From a virus: DNA of 10,603 bases. The notes beneath the pieces are model-generated. The model did not search any database. It had not been told where the DNA came from and worked only from the letters and a program-made list of their open reading frames with translations. Numbering within the stretch: position 1 is the stretch's first letter; each line of letters opens with the position of its first letter. The position numbers were made by a program, and so were the translations under genes. Shown here piece after piece: positions 1-9,434 of the stretch. The DNA lies in the UHGV virus genome UHGV-1818536; one strand, written 5' to 3'.

Positions 1-425
1 TCTTCGCGTGTGGCGCTGTAAAACGTCACGTCATCCACGCCTTTGAAGTATTTCTTGATGGTTCCTACACGCTTAAGGCCAATCATTGCGCAGTACATCT
101 GCCCGTGGCGGAATTTGCGCGCAGCGAACGATGTGACGCACTGAACGGTGGTGTTAGTCAGAATGTATCGCCAGAACGCCAGCCCGATTTCCTTGCTGAA
201 GCCGCGAATCTCTGGCAGGTACATGGCGTGGCAATCGAATGTCAGCGGCTGAATCTCCTGATAGTAAACAATGCCGCCGAACTGCCCGTGCACGTTCACC
301 TCAAAGTAACGGCATTCAGGCTTGTAGTCGTATCCATCACCGTTGTTGCTACCGGCGATAATGTCGGGGTGATTTCCCACGGCTTCTATCAGGTCGATGT
401 TTCGCGTTGGTTTGAACTGAATCAT
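1..425 (-). CDS. 14: P22 gp14-like protein (ejection/assembly-associated), N-terminal ~141 codons; 3' end runs off the window
   Basis: ATG at 425-423 overlaps the tail-needle stop (TGATG); GGAG lies 5 nt upstream. My own translation of the minus strand is open to position 1 and begins [61 protein letters not shown]..., which matches my recollection of P22 gp14 and its position directly after the needle gene. Not in the supplied ORF track because it is truncated by the window edge. Confidence 0.8.
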   Translation of the reverse strand, partial: MIQFKPTRNIDLIEAVGNHPDIIAGSNNGDGYDYKPECRYFEVNVHGQFGGIVYYQEIQPLTFDCHAMYLPEIRGFSKEIGLAFWRYILTNTTVQCVTSFAARKFRHGQMYCAMIGLKRVGTIKKYFKGVDDVTFYSATRE

Positions 426-1378
426 CACTGCTCCGCGATTATCTTGATGGTTGTGGCAGTAAACGCCGCACCATTTGACTGAATGGTTAACGTGCTGCCA
501 TTTGTGGCAAGAAAGCCGTCTTTATCCACGCTGAAGAACGTAGCTAACAGGATGTTGTCGGTTGTTGTCGCCGCATTACGACTGCTGACCAACGTGTCAG
601 GAACAGAGCCGGAAAAGGTTAGCTGCATTGACCTGTTGGCGGTTCCGCTGGGCCACGTCCCGACAATCGACAGCTTGAAGAACAAGGTTTTGTTCTCGTT
701 GAACACAACCATCTTGTTGTTAACGGTGTCGAAGAATGGTGCCAACGTGCCGGATGACGGCGTGAGCGTTTTCAGCAGGCTAACAAGGTTGGTCGGCGCT
801 GTCGGGATGGTTACAGATACGCCAGAGTAAACAACCTCTGACTTCTTGCGAGTAGTGGCATACTCAAGCGCAGATATTCTTGTTGAGTGATCACCAACTG
901 TGCTTTGTAGCGTCGAAATACTTCCCTCTGCCGCTGTGAGCCTGGTATCAAGTGCGTCGATATCGGTTGTATTCTGAGTTATGCGCGCATCATGGTTTGC
1001 TAACTCAGATTCATTGGCAGCAATTCGCGTCTCGTGATCAGCCAGCTCTGTTTCAGCAGCCGTAATCCTTGTTTCATGATCTGCAAGAGTGCTTTCCGCT
1101 GTTGCGATTCTATGTTCATGATTGACGAGAGTTGCTTCAGCAGCAGCAATTCTGGATTCATGGTCTGCAAGGGTGGCATCCTGCTCATCATTCTTCACCT
1201 GTGCATCATAAGCCCCCTTCCCTGCTTCGTTGGCCTTGTTAGCCACGTTACCAACATCAGTGCCCTGTGCGATAACGTAAAGCAGATACGACTGCGAGAA
1301 GATATTGCGTGGAAGGACTGATGTGTCGAGCCGTGTAGCCTGAATGATTACCGGCACATTGAGATTCGAATCAGCCAT
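425..1378 (-). CDS. 26: Tail needle (P22 gp26-like), 317 aa: conserved N-terminal gp10-docking region, repeat-expanded trimeric coiled coil, and a C-terminal knob-like domain absent from P22 gp26
   Basis: The N-terminus [43 protein letters not shown]...[13 protein letters not shown] resembles P22 gp26 as I recall it. ATG at 1378 overlaps the gp10 stop (TAATG), with AAGGA 7 nt upstream. Residues ~67-125 are 14-aa repeats ([14 protein letters not shown] / [14 protein letters not shown] / [14 protein letters not shown] / [14 protein letters not shown]). The C-terminal ~130 aa are Thr/Ser/Gly-rich and beta-like. Length is 317 aa versus 233 aa for P22 gp26. Confidence 0.9.
1016..1190. repeat. Four imperfect tandem ~42-bp in-frame repeats inside the tail-needle gene, each encoding a 14-residue (two-heptad) coiled-coil unit
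   Basis: Units visible by eye: gcaattcgcgtctcgtgatcagccagctctgtttcagcagcc / gtaatccttgtttcatgatctgcaagagtgctttccgctgtt / gcgattctatgttcatgattgacgagagttgcttcagcagca / gcaattctggattcatggtctgcaagggtggcatcctgctca. Boundaries are approximate. The repeats account for the spurious opposite-strand ORFs at 1000..1191 and 1034..1321. Confidence 0.7.
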
Positions 1379-2796
1379 TACTCAATCCTTATCTGGCAGC
1401 CTGACAGAGTGACAGGTGACTTCGTGATAACGCGCAATTTGAAGCCGACATTTTTCCTGATGCGCCCTACTCGCTTCCACAAAACGCGTTTGTCGTAAAC
1501 GAACGGTTCATTCTGCTCAATCATCTGCTCACGCCCGTAATTGATGCCGTCAGTGGTTGCAGAGAGAAAAAGGCGGTCAGCATACTGCGCAACGCCAGTT
1601 GAAGATTCAACTTCAAGGTCGAAAACTCTGGCGTTATCCGCTTTGAACAACGGAGTAAACAGCAGGTGTTCCTGCTGCTTGTCGTACTGGCTGCTGATAT
1701 CGAACTGCAATTTCCCGGTCACGGATTCCAGCTTATCGCCGCACGTTATCTGATTTCCTTCGTAAATGAAGTCGATAGCGCGGTACACATCGTCATACAG
1801 ACCTGTTTTCAGCACACACCATTGCGGACCATTGGCGCTTGAAGATGCGTCGTACACGAGAACATGGCGTGGAAGGTGGATAATCAGCAACTCATGAGCA
1901 TCAAATCTCAGAGACTCCATCACGCCATCAGCCAGTTCATCAGCAGTGTAGGAGCGTAGTATTTTCTCAATGCTCGCGCTGGCGATTGGTGACACCTGAC
2001 CGGAGCCGATGATGTATACAGACGGCGCACCTGTTGCCGGATTGCTGATGAACGCATACGAATCAGCGAATGGCGTTTTGCAGTAAGTCCCGGCAATGCC
2101 TTTCTGCACCATCAGTGATGGCTGTGCGACATACAAAGCAGCACCAACGGTGGTTGCACCAGTCAGGGAGAAATATTCAATCGTCGATGAACCAAAGCAG
2201 ACGATGAAGTCTCGCCATGTGCCGATACCGATGATGCCGTCCGGCTGCGATTCTGCGCGATATTGTGCGCTGTAACGGTCAGGATGCGATTCGTCTTCAA
2301 GGTCAGTGATAAACCATGAATCAGTGCCGTCTTTTGACCACGCATAACGCCCACGTAAGCGCGTAATGTCGCGGACTGAGCCTAACTCATACTGCGTGAA
2401 TCCGCTGTCTGTAGGCCAGTTTGAGACGGTTTTAACCGTGCCATCATAGCGATACTCGACCAGTTGACCATTAACGCCTACAGCCTGAGATGTCCGTCCA
2501 TGCGCCATTGATACGCGACCACTTCCGGCAACATCACCGACCTCGCTTTCACCCTTATACAGCTTGCCGCCACACACGCGATATACAGCATTCTGCGCCA
2601 TGTTGTACTCGACTCCGCGCGATACACCGTTTACATCAGAGCGTTTGGCAATGCCCGGGAATGAGCGAAGATATCCGCTGCTGTTCAGGATTTCTTTGGG
2701 TGTAGCCAACATATTCACTGGCAGATAGTCGATATAGTCGGCGTTTCGAAAGTCTTTGCCGACACCTTTCATAAGCGGAAGTTGCTGAATCGGCAT
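1378..2796 (-). CDS. 10: P22 gp10-like head-completion / tail-hub protein, 472 aa
   Basis: 472 aa, the length of P22 gp10. It sits between gp4 and the needle gene as in P22. ATG at 2796 overlaps the gp4 stop (TAATG), with GGGAG 6 nt upstream. Confidence 0.9.
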
Positions 2797-3296
2797 TATT
2801 CGCTCCCGTTATCGCAAGGTTCCTTTCGGTGGAAGTAATTCCAACCATTCCACTTCGCCAACTGGTTACCGCTACCAACAGGCATACGGTTTGGATAACC
2901 GGACTTACATTTAGCGGCTTTTGCTCTGTCCATTGCAGACAGTTTGACGAGTCGCTCTTTCCCGTATCTGGCAGTGGTTATAAGTTTTGCAGACGCTTCC
3001 AGCGCATAATCTGGAGCAATGCGGCAGGCAAGGTTGAAAATGACGGCATTGATAGCGTTATTTGATAAACCGTGCTCATCGCCCGGATCTGGAGCGACAT
3101 CTGCATCAGCGAAAATGTAGCCAACGTTGATACCAGGTGACGCATCACCGCCAAGCCATTCAGCCATCATCATTTCAAGGTCGTTGACGCCGTCTTCCAT
3201 AGACTGCGGTTCGACATCGGTTAACGTGGCATTTGATGCCACACCGAGCTTACGTAATGCCGCAAGAACTAAATCACCCTTCGTTGTCAGGTTCAT
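2796..3296 (-). CDS. 4: P22 gp4-like head-completion (portal-binding tail adaptor) protein, 166 aa
   Basis: The ORF track opens this frame at 3365 (189 aa), but the internal ATG at 3296 ([32 protein letters not shown]...) gives 166 aa, the P22 gp4 length, and has AAGGCGG upstream. The 3365 start would overlap the upstream small ORF by ~90 nt. Confidence 0.85.
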
Positions 3297-3504
3297 CTGC
3301 TGCCGCCTTAGGTTTTCGACCAGGCTTTTTACGCTGTTTTTCTTCTGGCTCTGGCTCTGCAACATCCTTCAAAAGGTCATCAGGATGTGAAAACCAACCA
3401 GCATCCAGATATTCCTGAAGCTCTTCGGCTTTCACGATTTCAAAGTCGTAGCCAACGCCTTTCCACTTCTTCATGTCGCCATGACGAAAGATCATGTGTG
3501 TCAT
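3274..3504 (-). CDS. Small hypothetical protein (~76 aa) between coat and gp4, with a charged C-terminal tail ([27 protein letters not shown]); possibly the counterpart of the small ORF reported between genes 5 and 4 in P22
   Basis: The track ORF 3274..3552 begins with GTG overlapping the coat stop. I prefer the ATG at 3504 ([16 protein letters not shown]...), which has a strong GGAG 6 nt upstream and lies just downstream of the post-coat hairpin. Its 3' end overlaps the gp4 start by 23 nt. Coding status is not proven. Confidence 0.45.
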
Positions 3505-3514
3505 GCTTGTCTCC

Positions 3515-3545
3515 AGATAAAAAAGGGAGCCGAAGCTCCCTCTGG
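3515..3545 (-). terminator. Intrinsic-terminator-like hairpin immediately after the coat gene
   Basis: On the minus strand, just after the coat stop: (a)GA-GGGAGC-UUCG-GCUCCC-UUUUUUAU. This is a perfect 6-bp GC-rich stem (extendable to ~9 bp with a G-U pair), a UUCG tetraloop and a U6 tract. Confidence 0.6.
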
Positions 3546-3548
3546 TTA

Positions 3549-4844
3549 TCACGCAGTCTGGTTAGGCAGACCAACACCAATTGCCTCTGGTCGTACAGCA
3601 CATGCTGAATACCACACAGCAATACGGCACTTACCAGACAGAGTGTTGATATCACCCTGCGTTGCGAAGATGCCGTTAACACCAATACCTGGAATGCTGA
3701 AGGAAGACGTTTTCATGCCAGCAAACAGTTCATGGGTTACCGGGATCGGCTGAGACAGCAGACGGATTGAGTCATCAGCCCAGAACACGTTAGCGGTGGT
3801 TGTTGCCACGTTCAGAACGTTTACCGGAGTGGTATCAGCAAGAGAGGTGTTTACGTTAGCGTAAGCCTTCTCTTCTTTTGTCAGTGACGCGTCATCCAGC
3901 GCAATCGGCTTCGGCGTGATTTCGATGTGAGTACCATCGATCACACGGGTGATTGAGAAAGTAGCATCATCAGTCAGCACGTTCTTCGCCATCTGAGACA
4001 GGAATTTCACACCAGTGAAGCTGATTTTGTCGCCGCGCTTAAATCCGGTGGTGGAGGATACGGTCACCGTTGCAACACGGTTGTCGACGTTCTCTTTGTT
4101 ACCATCGGTATCAAGGGTGTATGCCTGCGGCTTAAACTTCTGCGCACCAGAAACAGTTACACCAGTAGCGGTTGACTTGGTAACTGCCGGAAGTTTCGGT
4201 GAGCGAAGAATTTCATCAAAGCCAGCAATCTGACGCTGAATAGTACCGTTGCGATACGCTTCTTCAGGAACGCGACCGAAGATGTCACCATCTACCAGGT
4301 TGCGGCCTGCTTTGCGGTAATCGTCAGGGTTCAGGAAGTAACTGATGCCCATATCGCGGTTTAGCTCACGGGAGAACATCAGGCGCTCTGCATCAGACAC
4401 AAAATCCCAGCCAGACAGGCCAGTAGATGGACCAATTGCGCGGGTATCGTGAACAACAAGCGAGCCCATTTCAGTTGCCTGTTTGGCAATCGCTGACTCA
4501 ATGTTATTCGCCAGTTTTTTGGCGGATGCCTGGATGCGGCGACGGTAAGAACGCTCATCACGCAGGTCATCTGCACGAAGCTCGAAGAAATCGTTATCCG
4601 GATCGCCCATGTTGCATTTCACGGAGAGCTCCAGAATCCCGGTAGCGTTGCCAGTTAAATCCCAGCCAGTCTGAGTTGGCGCTTCCTGCTCAACAGGCAT
4701 CCACACGGTGTTGCTTGAACGTTGCATGGATTCTGCCGGAGGGGTGTATTTTGTCACTTTGGACGCCATTGGCGTCAGGTTCTGGACGGTTTCGATGATT
4801 TCATCCAGAGCATACGTGACCAGTTGACCTTCATTTAATGCCAT
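3549..4844 (-). CDS. 5: Major capsid (coat) protein, P22 gp5-like, 431 aa
   Basis: 431 aa versus 430 aa for P22 gp5, with the recognisable start [27 protein letters not shown]... It follows the scaffold gene directly with a TAATG overlap, and AAGGA lies ~9 nt upstream. Confidence 0.95.
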
Positions 4845-7934: not shown

Positions 7935-9434
7935 TTAAGTTCTCCGTGCGATGGGCCTGATTGGGGCTGGTATCTTTTTCTCTTTTGGTTTTTTGATGTC
8001 GCGCATCATTTTTGCGAAGCGGCGCATCATGTATGCATAGCGAACGGCTGAGAGAACGTCGTCGTTAAGCTTGACGATTTTCCCGTTTTCATCACGGTGA
8101 TAGAGGCGGAACTCCTCAAAGAATGGCTCACAGGTGTTGAATACTTTGAAGCGACCATCAAGCATCATGTCGCGCAATTCAGTGATGCCAGGCTCAACAG
8201 CATTACCGCCATCAGGCCATGTCGCATGCTCCTGCAACATCATAAAACCAGCTTCCGCGTACTGCCCTTTAAGCTGCTCACCGCCGCCCTTCTCGTGCTG
8301 GTTTCCGTCATGAGGCCATGCGGTTGGCACTTTATGCGCCCATGATTTAACTGCTCCCCACGCCTGAACGGCTGTTTTTTCTTTCGCCTTCCACACGCGT
8401 GAAACGTAGATTGTGTCTGCATCCTTATCCCACCAAAGCTGAACCTGCGCCTGTGGGTGATCCCATCCGAAATCAATCCCGCCAATTACGTAGAAGTGAT
8501 CAGGACACTCGAACGGCTGACACTTAATCGTCTCTTCCGGTATCTGGAAGATTCGACCACTACCCATCGTAGGAATACCGCGAGCACGCGCCTCTCTCTC
8601 ATGCTCTGGATAGGATGCGATGATTTGCTCTTTCTGCTCGTCGGTGTAGTGCTCAGCGTCATAGATGGTCATGTTGACCACTTTCTGCGACTTGCTGGGA
8701 TTCTTCAGGAACTTGGTAACAACGTCAGACATCCCCATCAGCGGGGTAAACGTCAGAATTGAGAATTGCCCGTATTTGTTGGTACGGGTAAGACCTTCGC
8801 CATAAATGCTGTATGGTGGCTCTTCGTCAAACCACACGCCGTGGATTGTGTCACCCTGCCAGCGAGCGCGGCCTTGCGAGTATGGTTTGAAGTAGCAGAT
8901 TGAAATGCCATCTTCAACGCCATCAGCCGTGTGATGCTTAACCAGAAGATGATCAACAAGGTTCGGAAAGAAAGGAGACTTCTTCCAGCTAATGATGTCT
9001 TCTTTCGGTATGGAACCGTAGCCAGGCTCATCATTCTCTTCGATACGACCGCACAGGATGCGTTGAGTCGTTTTGGTTACAGTCTCGTTTGTCTCGCCAC
9101 CAATCCAGAAAACAACAGGCTCATAGACACGCTTCCCTTTCCACTCACCGCCATATATACCATCAGCAGGATAGCCTTTTGTGCCCGGATAACGCCCGGT
9201 AAGGTGAAACGCGACTTCAGCAGCACCAGTAAATGACTTACCAAGCTGGTTACCAGCCATAAAACATCGCTCTGGATAGTCATGTCCGGCGTCGATGAAC
9301 TCACGCTGTTTGCTGTATGGCGTAAATTCATATAGCAGGTGTGTGTTCCGGTAGTTCTCTTCTTCTTCGAGTAGCTCGAGCAATTCGATTTGCTCTTCGT
9401 CGCTCAGGTTATCAAGAATCGCGTCCAGTTCCAC
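7935..9434 (-). CDS. terL: Terminase large subunit, P22 gp2-like, 499 aa (ATPase plus nuclease)
   Basis: 499 aa, the P22 gp2 length, with start (M)[28 protein letters not shown]... and a Walker-A-like AGNQLGKS near residue 60. The start codon is GTG at 9434-9432 (I read the bases directly), with AAGGAG 10 nt upstream. There is no in-frame ATG between the upstream stop at 9494 and residue 59. The gene overlaps the 3' end of terS by 23 nt. Confidence 0.95.

Follow-up and report, generated by a model that had tools for sequence, protein, structure and literature searches.

An HS1-type tail needle in a P22-like coliphage genome and a 14-residue ladder of shaft lengths among its relatives

Which part of the virion is encoded by a gene whose product appears to combine a P22 gp26-like N terminus, a repeat-built coiled coil, and a Thr/Ser/Gly-rich C-terminal domain, does the length of such a protein change by whole repeat units among relatives, and do its length and its tip bear on host range? 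These questions are raised by a 10,603-nucleotide stretch of the virus genome UHGV-1818536, which was analyzed over its full length and is referred to here as the window. From the letters of this DNA, a tail needle with a tandem-repeat-expanded shaft and a C-terminal knob had been predicted, and both features had been proposed to influence the hosts that can be infected.

Positions 425..1378 on the minus strand hold a tail needle gene of the HS1 type, a homolog of P22 gene 26 and Sf6 gene 9, on the basis of the ORF list, the identity of its product to the Escherichia coli HS protein ABV04705.1, and PHROG and PDB matches. According to the ORF list, the gene runs from an ATG at 1378-1376 to a TGA at 427-425 and encodes 317 amino acids plus a stop; this assignment to the minus strand is a correction to the original prediction, and all parts of the needle described below lie on the same strand. 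The protein matches PHROG 1030, "tail needle knob" (3.6e-136), and PHROG 1219, "tail needle protein" (9e-58). Upstream, the gp10-type tail hub, the channel of which is plugged by the needle, is encoded at 1378..2796 on the minus strand (Pfam PF11134, 1.8e-301), and its TAA stop overlaps the needle ATG as TAATG. Downstream, the needle TGA overlaps, as TGATG, the ATG of a gp14-like gene (DUF2824; 3..425, minus strand; PHROG 651, 2.7e-73), which is cut by the window edge and the position of which is occupied by PF11039 in relatives. Genes further upstream encode a gp4-type adaptor (PF11650) and a P22-type coat protein (PF11651) by Pfam. The order gp10 hub, needle, gp14-like gene, which is that of the gp26 family, is the same in the relatives examined. 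The late operon of a P22-like coliphage makes up the whole window, and this DNA is about 97% identical over 85 to 90% of its length to coliphages IME10, APC_JM3.2, and HZ41. The location between gp10 and gp14 homologs and the gp26-type N terminus identify the protein as a tail needle, in agreement with the PHROG and PDB matches and with what had been predicted.

Three short ORFs inside the needle gene (1000..1191, minus; 1034..1321, plus; and 483..830, plus) were rejected as chance frames within a conserved coding gene. Weak Pfam matches to MscS_porin, ATG16, XhlA, and crescentin were disregarded as compositional noise, and NCBIfam yielded no model for the needle protein, with sub-threshold coiled-coil noise (SMC, PspA) alone.

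The needle is already known in detail. Its exact protein sequence is present in public data, in a cluster of 1430 members named "tail needle knob protein" to which ABV04705.1 also belongs, and the two proteins are identical at 307 of 317 residues in a gap-free alignment. We regard ABV04705.1 as the needle encoded by the HS1 prophage of E. coli HS (EcHS_A0316; PMC3741392), because the HS1 needle is described as 317 amino acids long in that paper, S269 is common to ABV04705.1 and the crystallized HS1 knob (PDB 4K6B), and the remaining residues fit the published numbering. The protein of the window is thus a near-copy (97%) of the HS1 needle, and both the knob and the homologous gp26 core are represented by crystal structures. 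Matches that cover at least 80% of the gene occur in phages vB_EcoP-720R6, Gally, and JEP4 and in 164 of 5426 complete E. coli genomes; among the matches listed, those at this coverage are all 954-nt genes with 95 to 98% identity.

The N-terminal virion-binding plug (aa 1-60; 1199..1378), predicted to fold as a helical hairpin and close the gp10 hub channel, was assigned by identity to P22 gp26 and by PDB matches. Residues 1 to 65 are identical to P22 gp26 at 53 of 65 positions, as had been proposed for this part of the protein, and residues 1 to 78 at 62 of 78. The gp26 chains in the PDB (2poh/3c9i) match at E values of 1e-41 to 1e-46, reaching about 1e-46 over residues 1 to 118, and PDB 8eap_B matches residues 3 to 64. 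The N-terminal hub-binding domain of about 60 residues is therefore homologous to that of P22 gp26, as in the gp26 family. In the Sf6 tail structure from cryo-electron microscopy, the N-terminal helical hairpin occupies the channel of the hexameric hub as a quasi-sixfold plug and holds back the packaged DNA (PMC9728967). Adjacent to the plug, an NxxQD polar core motif, N62-D-E-Q65-D66 (1181..1195), places N at heptad position a, Q at d, and D at e, within a KNDEQD segment identical to that of P22 gp26. The motif coordinates Ca2+ in P22 gp26 (PMC13580157), and N62, Q65, and D66 form a putative Ca2+ site here.

The C-terminal domain of about 143 amino acids (aa 175-317; 428..856), 34% of which are Thr, Ser, or Gly, had been suspected to be a knob of the kind carried by Sf6-type needles, and it proved to be one. 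It matches the complete profile (positions 1 to 175) of Pfam PF16532, Phage_tail_NK, "Sf6-type phage tail needle knob," at 1.4e-107 and 357 bits against a cutoff of 27. Residues 167 to 317 differ from the crystallized HS1 knob segment (PDB 4K6B) at a single position, A269 versus S269, and show about 99% identity with that of Sf6 (PDB 3RWN). The published knob is a TNF-like jellyroll trimer that resembles the fiber knobs of adenovirus and PRD1 and holds three L-glutamates at its subunit interfaces (PMC3741392); the same fold would be expected here by analogy with the Sf6 and HS1 structures (PMC3741392, PMC9728967). Leavitt et al. described L-glutamate contacts of the HS1 knob at E181, K235, S283, D285, L290, and K312 and a tip phosphate triad of S266-R267-N268 (PMC3741392). 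All eleven of the residues checked for the glutamate pocket and the phosphate triad are present at the HS1 numbering, consistent with a predicted pocket of the same kind.

Between plug and knob, aa 56 to 174 (857..1213) form a coiled-coil shaft that, from its heptad table and its homology with the gp26 coiled coil, is predicted to be trimeric. It contains 17 heptads in one unbroken register, with L, I, or V at position a and H, A, N, or L at position d, a long and uninterrupted pattern that is compatible with a parallel trimeric coiled coil. The shaft of the HS1 needle has been described as 16 heptads long and about 210 Å, and those of Sf6 and P22 as 11 heptads (PMC3741392). Four clear units of 14 residues, each of two heptads and 42 nt, occupy aa 70-83, 84-97, 98-111, and 112-125 (1004..1171) at spacings of 42, 42, and 42 nt, and share 7 to 11 of 14 residues and 19 to 32 of 42 nt with each other. 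Three degenerate units follow at aa 126 to 167 (878..1003); they keep the heptad register, show 0 to 7 of 14 residues identical to the core units, and lie in register with the deletion junctions of three relatives (P0015, P0064, and L004).

The periodicity was shown by a repeat search and by autocorrelation. At a lag of 14 residues, the shaft has 43 identities, compared with a maximum of 24 among 5000 shuffles, and 7 of 5000 shuffles of heptad order alone attained the observed value. At a lag of 42 nt, DNA identity is 0.51, compared with a maximum of 0.44 after codon shuffling. The four tandem 14-residue units of the original prediction are thus real, since their periodicity exceeds that of the shuffle controls. 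As DNA repeats they are more modest: the 42-nt periodicity is present, but the units are old and diverged (45 to 76% identical, with a longest exact in-register match of 8 to 10 nt), and a scan of the window with Tandem Repeats Finder gave no array within this gene, even at a score of 30. Likewise, the description of the shaft as repeat-expanded stands relative to Sf6 and P22, by the published heptad counts of 16 versus 11, but not as a recent expansion in this gene. The seven-unit, 317-amino-acid layout is kept in homologs from Klebsiella aerogenes and Serratia marcescens at 76 to 79% identity, indicating that the 317-amino-acid form is old and stable rather than recently expanded.

Among relatives, the number of units is far from fixed. 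The homologs analyzed were the best 120 of 2489 by score, a selection rather than a random sample, and their total lengths fall on two ladders with steps of 14 residues, 289/303/317/331/345 and 254/268/282/296/310/338 amino acids. When the shaft was isolated between the anchors NDEQD and LEYATTRKK, its length was equal modulo 7 in 110 of 114 homologs, with classes of 75, 89, 103, 117, and 131 residues in the HS1-type series and 40, 54, 68, 82, 96, and 124 residues in the Sf6-type series. A 324-amino-acid entry (P0007) is not a shaft variant, since it is a gene of the 317-amino-acid type with a 7-residue N-terminal extension that stems from a different start call. Knob-bearing needles of 281 to 308 amino acids also occur in Citrobacter, Buttiauxella, and Symbiopectobacterium.

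Writing the shafts as 14-mers, with the units of the canonical 317-amino-acid shaft numbered 1 to 7, revealed at least 12 distinct in-register junction architectures. Within the HS1-type series, 303 amino acids is reached in three ways, by fusion of units 1/2, 2/3, or 4/5, and 289 amino acids by two routes; a 49-residue deletion that joins unit 4 to unit 7 gives 268 amino acids, a 28-residue duplication of units 1 and 2 gives 345, and the same 28-residue duplication together with the loss of 14 residues gives 331. Within the Sf6-type series, deletions of 28 and 14 residues give 254 and 268 amino acids, a 14-residue duplication gives 296, and one or two additional copies of a 28-residue block give 310 and 338. 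A four-way DNA alignment shows deletions of exactly 42 nt at two different boundaries between units, as well as an 84-nt duplication, within DNA that is otherwise near-identical. The deletion junctions share only 5 to 8 nt of imperfect homology, and the 84-bp tandem repeats are 93% identical in the 345-amino-acid gene and 98% identical in the 338-amino-acid gene. The proposal that needle length would vary in 14-residue steps between relatives is therefore borne out by the two ladders, the exact 42-nt deletions, and the 84-nt duplication, and unit number is not invariant among close homologs.

These length variants are real and inherited. One and the same 303-amino-acid protein recurs on 17 contigs and in four prophages that are mosaically distinct, with differences in terminase family, coat length, and tailspike, and a 289-amino-acid protein is found on 17 contigs from NCBI and Logan assemblies. 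It is very improbable that the ladder is an artifact of short-read assembly across a repeat, with 317 and 282 amino acids as the only true forms. Such an artifact would fit the origin of the variant sequences, most of which come from draft or third-party assemblies, and the 345- and 338-amino-acid forms, which are singletons whose near-perfect 84-bp repeats (L001 and L002) have copy numbers taken from single short-read assemblies. Against it, the deleted units and their neighbors match exactly over at most 10 nt, which is too little for collapse in a de Bruijn graph; the common variants all preserve the reading frame and the unit register, with junctions in several different places; and variants recur in assemblies made independently by different submitters with different pipelines, on contigs of up to megabases. 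When complete E. coli genomes were searched with the 303-amino-acid gene, in two junction types, and with the 345-amino-acid gene, the top matches were all 954-nt genes aligned in two pieces, and the 912- or 1038-nt form was in none of them, which an artifact would also fit. The 303- and 345-amino-acid variants are hence rare in complete E. coli genomes, which could mean mild counter-selection, and, with no single-piece match among those top matches, their confirmation comes from draft, third-party, and Logan assemblies only.

The same data bear on whether the 42-bp array acts as a contingency locus, that is, a hypermutable tandem repeat that would produce needles of mixed length within one lysate. 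The repeats are in frame, their number varies among relatives, and the two relatives with near-perfect 84-bp tandem copies would be expected to be unstable at this site. However, near-identical, slippable tandem DNA units were not found in the window, where the divergence of the units makes a poor substrate for slippage; individual variants are stable enough to remain unchanged across the 17 contigs and the four phage backgrounds; and in nearly every complete E. coli genome the gene has one of two lengths, 954 nt or 849 nt. A contingency locus is thus scarcely credible. The original view of the 42-bp repeats as a substrate for slippage or unequal recombination accords with the gain and loss of units in relatives but fits this window poorly.

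Both the knob and the length of the needle had been suggested as possible influences on host range, and neither suggestion was supported. Published P22 chimeras that bear the HS1 knob, or the knob and most of the shaft of Sf6, plaque normally on Salmonella (PMC3741392), which argues against a role of the knob. For the shaft, needle length was compared with tailspike type at 84 loci, and no coupling between the two was found in this set. The 317-amino-acid needle co-occurs with at least 28 clusters of tailspike receptor domains, in tailspikes of 478 to 1281 amino acids; one tailspike cluster (L018 and L084) is paired with both 317- and 282-amino-acid needles; and the identical 303-amino-acid needle is paired with tailspikes of 665 and 805 amino acids. 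The breadth of tailspike clusters that accompany one needle length and the cluster shared by two lengths indicate that needle length is not coupled to the primary-receptor module.

An influence of the needle on the course of infection is a separate matter. PMC3741392 describes the needle as projecting past the tailspikes and as thought to be the first to touch the outer membrane. Changes at the tip slow K+ release, equated with slower DNA delivery, and Leavitt et al. attributed an altered rate of K+ release to shaft residues 69 to 141 (PMC3741392), given which the shaft may not be inert. Subtler effects of length on delivery kinetics or stability are possible, and longer needles have been linked with stability in a published correlation of the two. 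The needle might even serve as an adaptive ruler, with 14-residue changes selected for reach through O-antigen or capsule and contributing to host range or infection efficiency. The discrete, recurrent, and horizontally spread length classes, the reach of the needle beyond the tailspikes, and the proposed effect of shaft sequence on K+ release kinetics are in keeping with a ruler. We nevertheless consider it unlikely, as one length serves with so many tailspikes, one tailspike cluster with two lengths, and one 303-amino-acid needle with two tailspike lengths, and the 317-amino-acid layout persists in genera whose surface polysaccharides are very different. Equally doubtful is a broader version, in which the shaft is a recurrently resized module, with at least 12 separate events in E. 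coli and Shigella prophages and spread between mosaic phages, and this pattern might be owed to selection for reach or stability, with the moment of DNA release adjusted to envelope architecture, and not to neutral drift.

We are highly confident that the gene encodes a tail needle of the HS1 subtype, from an E. coli temperate phage or prophage that is P22-like (Lederbergvirus-type); no observation speaks against this identification. Presence in the virion, plugging of the channel, and release at infection, all known for P22 and Sf6, would be expected here from the 97% identity to the HS1 needle. The working proposed for this needle takes its plugging role, its trimeric state, its glutamate ligands, and its influence on the rate of delivery from published work on P22, Sf6, and HS1. 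Three chains would assemble into one long fiber, in line with the homotrimers of P22, Sf6, and HS1. The N-terminal 60 or so residues of the needle would fold back as a helical hairpin and, once packaging is complete, plug the gp10 hub and hold the genome inside the head. Residues of about 56 to 174 would form a parallel three-stranded coiled coil of 16 to 17 heptads, arranged as about seven two-heptad units of 14 residues, and residues of about 175 to 317 a trimeric TNF-like knob, with three intersubunit L-glutamates, at the tip beyond the tailspikes. Release of the needle at infection would allow ejection proteins and DNA to exit, and tip and shaft would probably modulate the speed of release and delivery but not the species infected. 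Owing to the 42-nt periodicity of the shaft, and since any whole number of heptads should still fold, in-register deletions and duplications between units would be the commonest length changes to survive, and the population would contain needles 14 or 28 residues apart. We infer, as the most economical reading, that the variants are tolerated and near-neutral rather than host-range switches, and slippage or short-homology deletion and duplication between the 42-nt units appears to be the most economical mechanism of their origin.

For annotation, the value of the result is small, because the protein is a near-copy of one of the best-characterized phage tail parts and is already named correctly in databases. 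The ladder is one modest addition, a natural series of needles of 289 to 345 and 254 to 338 amino acids with essentially identical plug and knob, which offers ready reagents for asking whether length affects the kinetics of DNA delivery or thermostability, a question first raised by the Cingolani and Casjens groups. No population-level 14-residue ladder of needles was found in the literature examined, in which shaft-length variation is represented by Leavitt et al. (2013) alone and which does not cover Bhardwaj et al. (2009), the paper likeliest to describe such a ladder.

Of the known needles, that of HS1 (EcHS_A0316, ABV04705.1; knob, PDB 4K6B) is the closest, with the same 317 amino acids, 16- to 17-heptad shaft, contact residues, and gene neighborhood. 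Nine of the ten substitutions that separate the two lie within residues 54 to 138, at the end of the N-terminal domain and in the shaft, and there is no difference in kind; however, the head genes around the needle are a different mosaic from those of HS1, and the window is closest to IME10-like phages. Sf6 gp9 (282 amino acids; PDB 3RWN) has a nearly identical plug and knob (knob, about 99%) and the same function and virion position (PMC9728967), whereas its shaft is 35 residues, or 5 heptads, shorter and is about 67% identical to that of HS1 (PMC3741392). A megablast alignment with Sf6 covers only 79% of the needle gene of the window, in two pieces, and shafts of the Sf6 type follow a 14-residue ladder of their own, offset by 7 from that of the HS1 type. 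P22 gp26 (233 amino acids; PDB 2POH/3C9I) shares the N-terminal 78 residues at 79% identity, including NxxQD, as well as the plug function and homologous first LADHE-RI units of the shaft, but it lacks the knob, ends in an unrelated C-terminal domain with an inverted coiled-coil tip, and has 11 heptads (PMC3741392). The fiber knobs of adenovirus and PRD1 (P5) belong to the same class of TNF-like trimer folds, according to the Sf6 and HS1 structure papers; those knobs bind receptors, whereas swaps of needle knobs leave species specificity unchanged (PMC3741392).

The shaft of the needle carries a polar-core motif, NxxQD, present as N-D-E-Q-D at residues 62 to 66 (window 1181-1195). The motif is identical in the window needle and in all homologues whose shafts were anchored on NDEQD, among the best 120 of 2489 analysed; in P22 gp26, it coordinates a Ca2+ ion (PMC13580157). 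Beyond it, core position d is occupied by histidine in six shaft heptads (3, 5, 7, 9, 11, and 16; H73, H87, H101, H115, H129, and H164; window 878-1171), which would place stacked His layers within the predicted trimeric coiled coil. Such layers might confer pH-sensitive stability on the shaft.

The heptad register is broken in a few variants. P0054, a 309-aa Sf6-type needle encoded on a 5.03-Mb E. coli contig, carries an internal duplication of 27 residues rather than 28 (…IAQNESDI/NHEERISQAESTLQEHETRIAQNESDI…), and its register is therefore off by one residue, as 27 mod 7 is 6. In an eLife 2016 study (PMC4786415), a two- or six-residue insertion in a heptad repeat is described as producing a new fibre type; by analogy, this register shift may create a local structural break in the P0054 shaft, or the needle may be defective. 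Further out-of-register needles, each a singleton, are P0051, P0053, and P0008. In addition, P0125, a JGI/IMG member of the needle's cluster named "predicted nucleic acid-binding Zn-ribbon protein," is a misannotated needle.

Elsewhere in the window, a small conserved ORF of unknown function (3274-3552, minus strand; PHROG 1175, 2.7e-37) lies between the coat and gp4 genes and is 92 aa long as listed. At the same position, relatives have calls of 61 to 62 aa, and the P22-like prophage L109 has one of 110 aa; given these calls, translation probably begins at a start codon inside the 92-aa ORF as listed. The gp4 ORF (2796-3365) is likewise listed at 189 aa, versus 153 to 166 aa in relatives. Tandem Repeats Finder also reported a 21-nt unit (2.0 copies, 80% identity) at 8001-8042, within the large terminase gene, which is probably a chance repeat.

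In L109, an HNH endonuclease gene (L109 5843-6358, opposite strand; PF13392, 171 aa) sits between the scaffold and coat genes, and NUMOD4 or HNH genes are annotated beside the needle gene in some E. coli genomes. These genes look like homing-endonuclease insertions into the late operon.

The knob is also found apart from the full needle. In many E. coli O157:H7 genomes, the match is confined to the knob half of the needle gene (query 507-954, 95% identity; H49 to H69), as at NZ_CP008957.1 3283761-3284208. The matching gene in these genomes, annotated "tail needle knob protein," adjoins a DUF2824 gene and looks like a truncated needle gene of a decayed P22-like prophage common to the lineage. 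Loci from Citrobacter meridianamericanus, Enterobacter asburiae, and a Vibrio MAG (L097, L100, and L104) match the knob only (query 174-317, 39 to 53% identity), and the gp26-type N-terminal part is missing from them. Proteins other than P22-like needles thus also bear the knob domain, as Leavitt et al. (PMC3741392) remarked of some T4-like phages.
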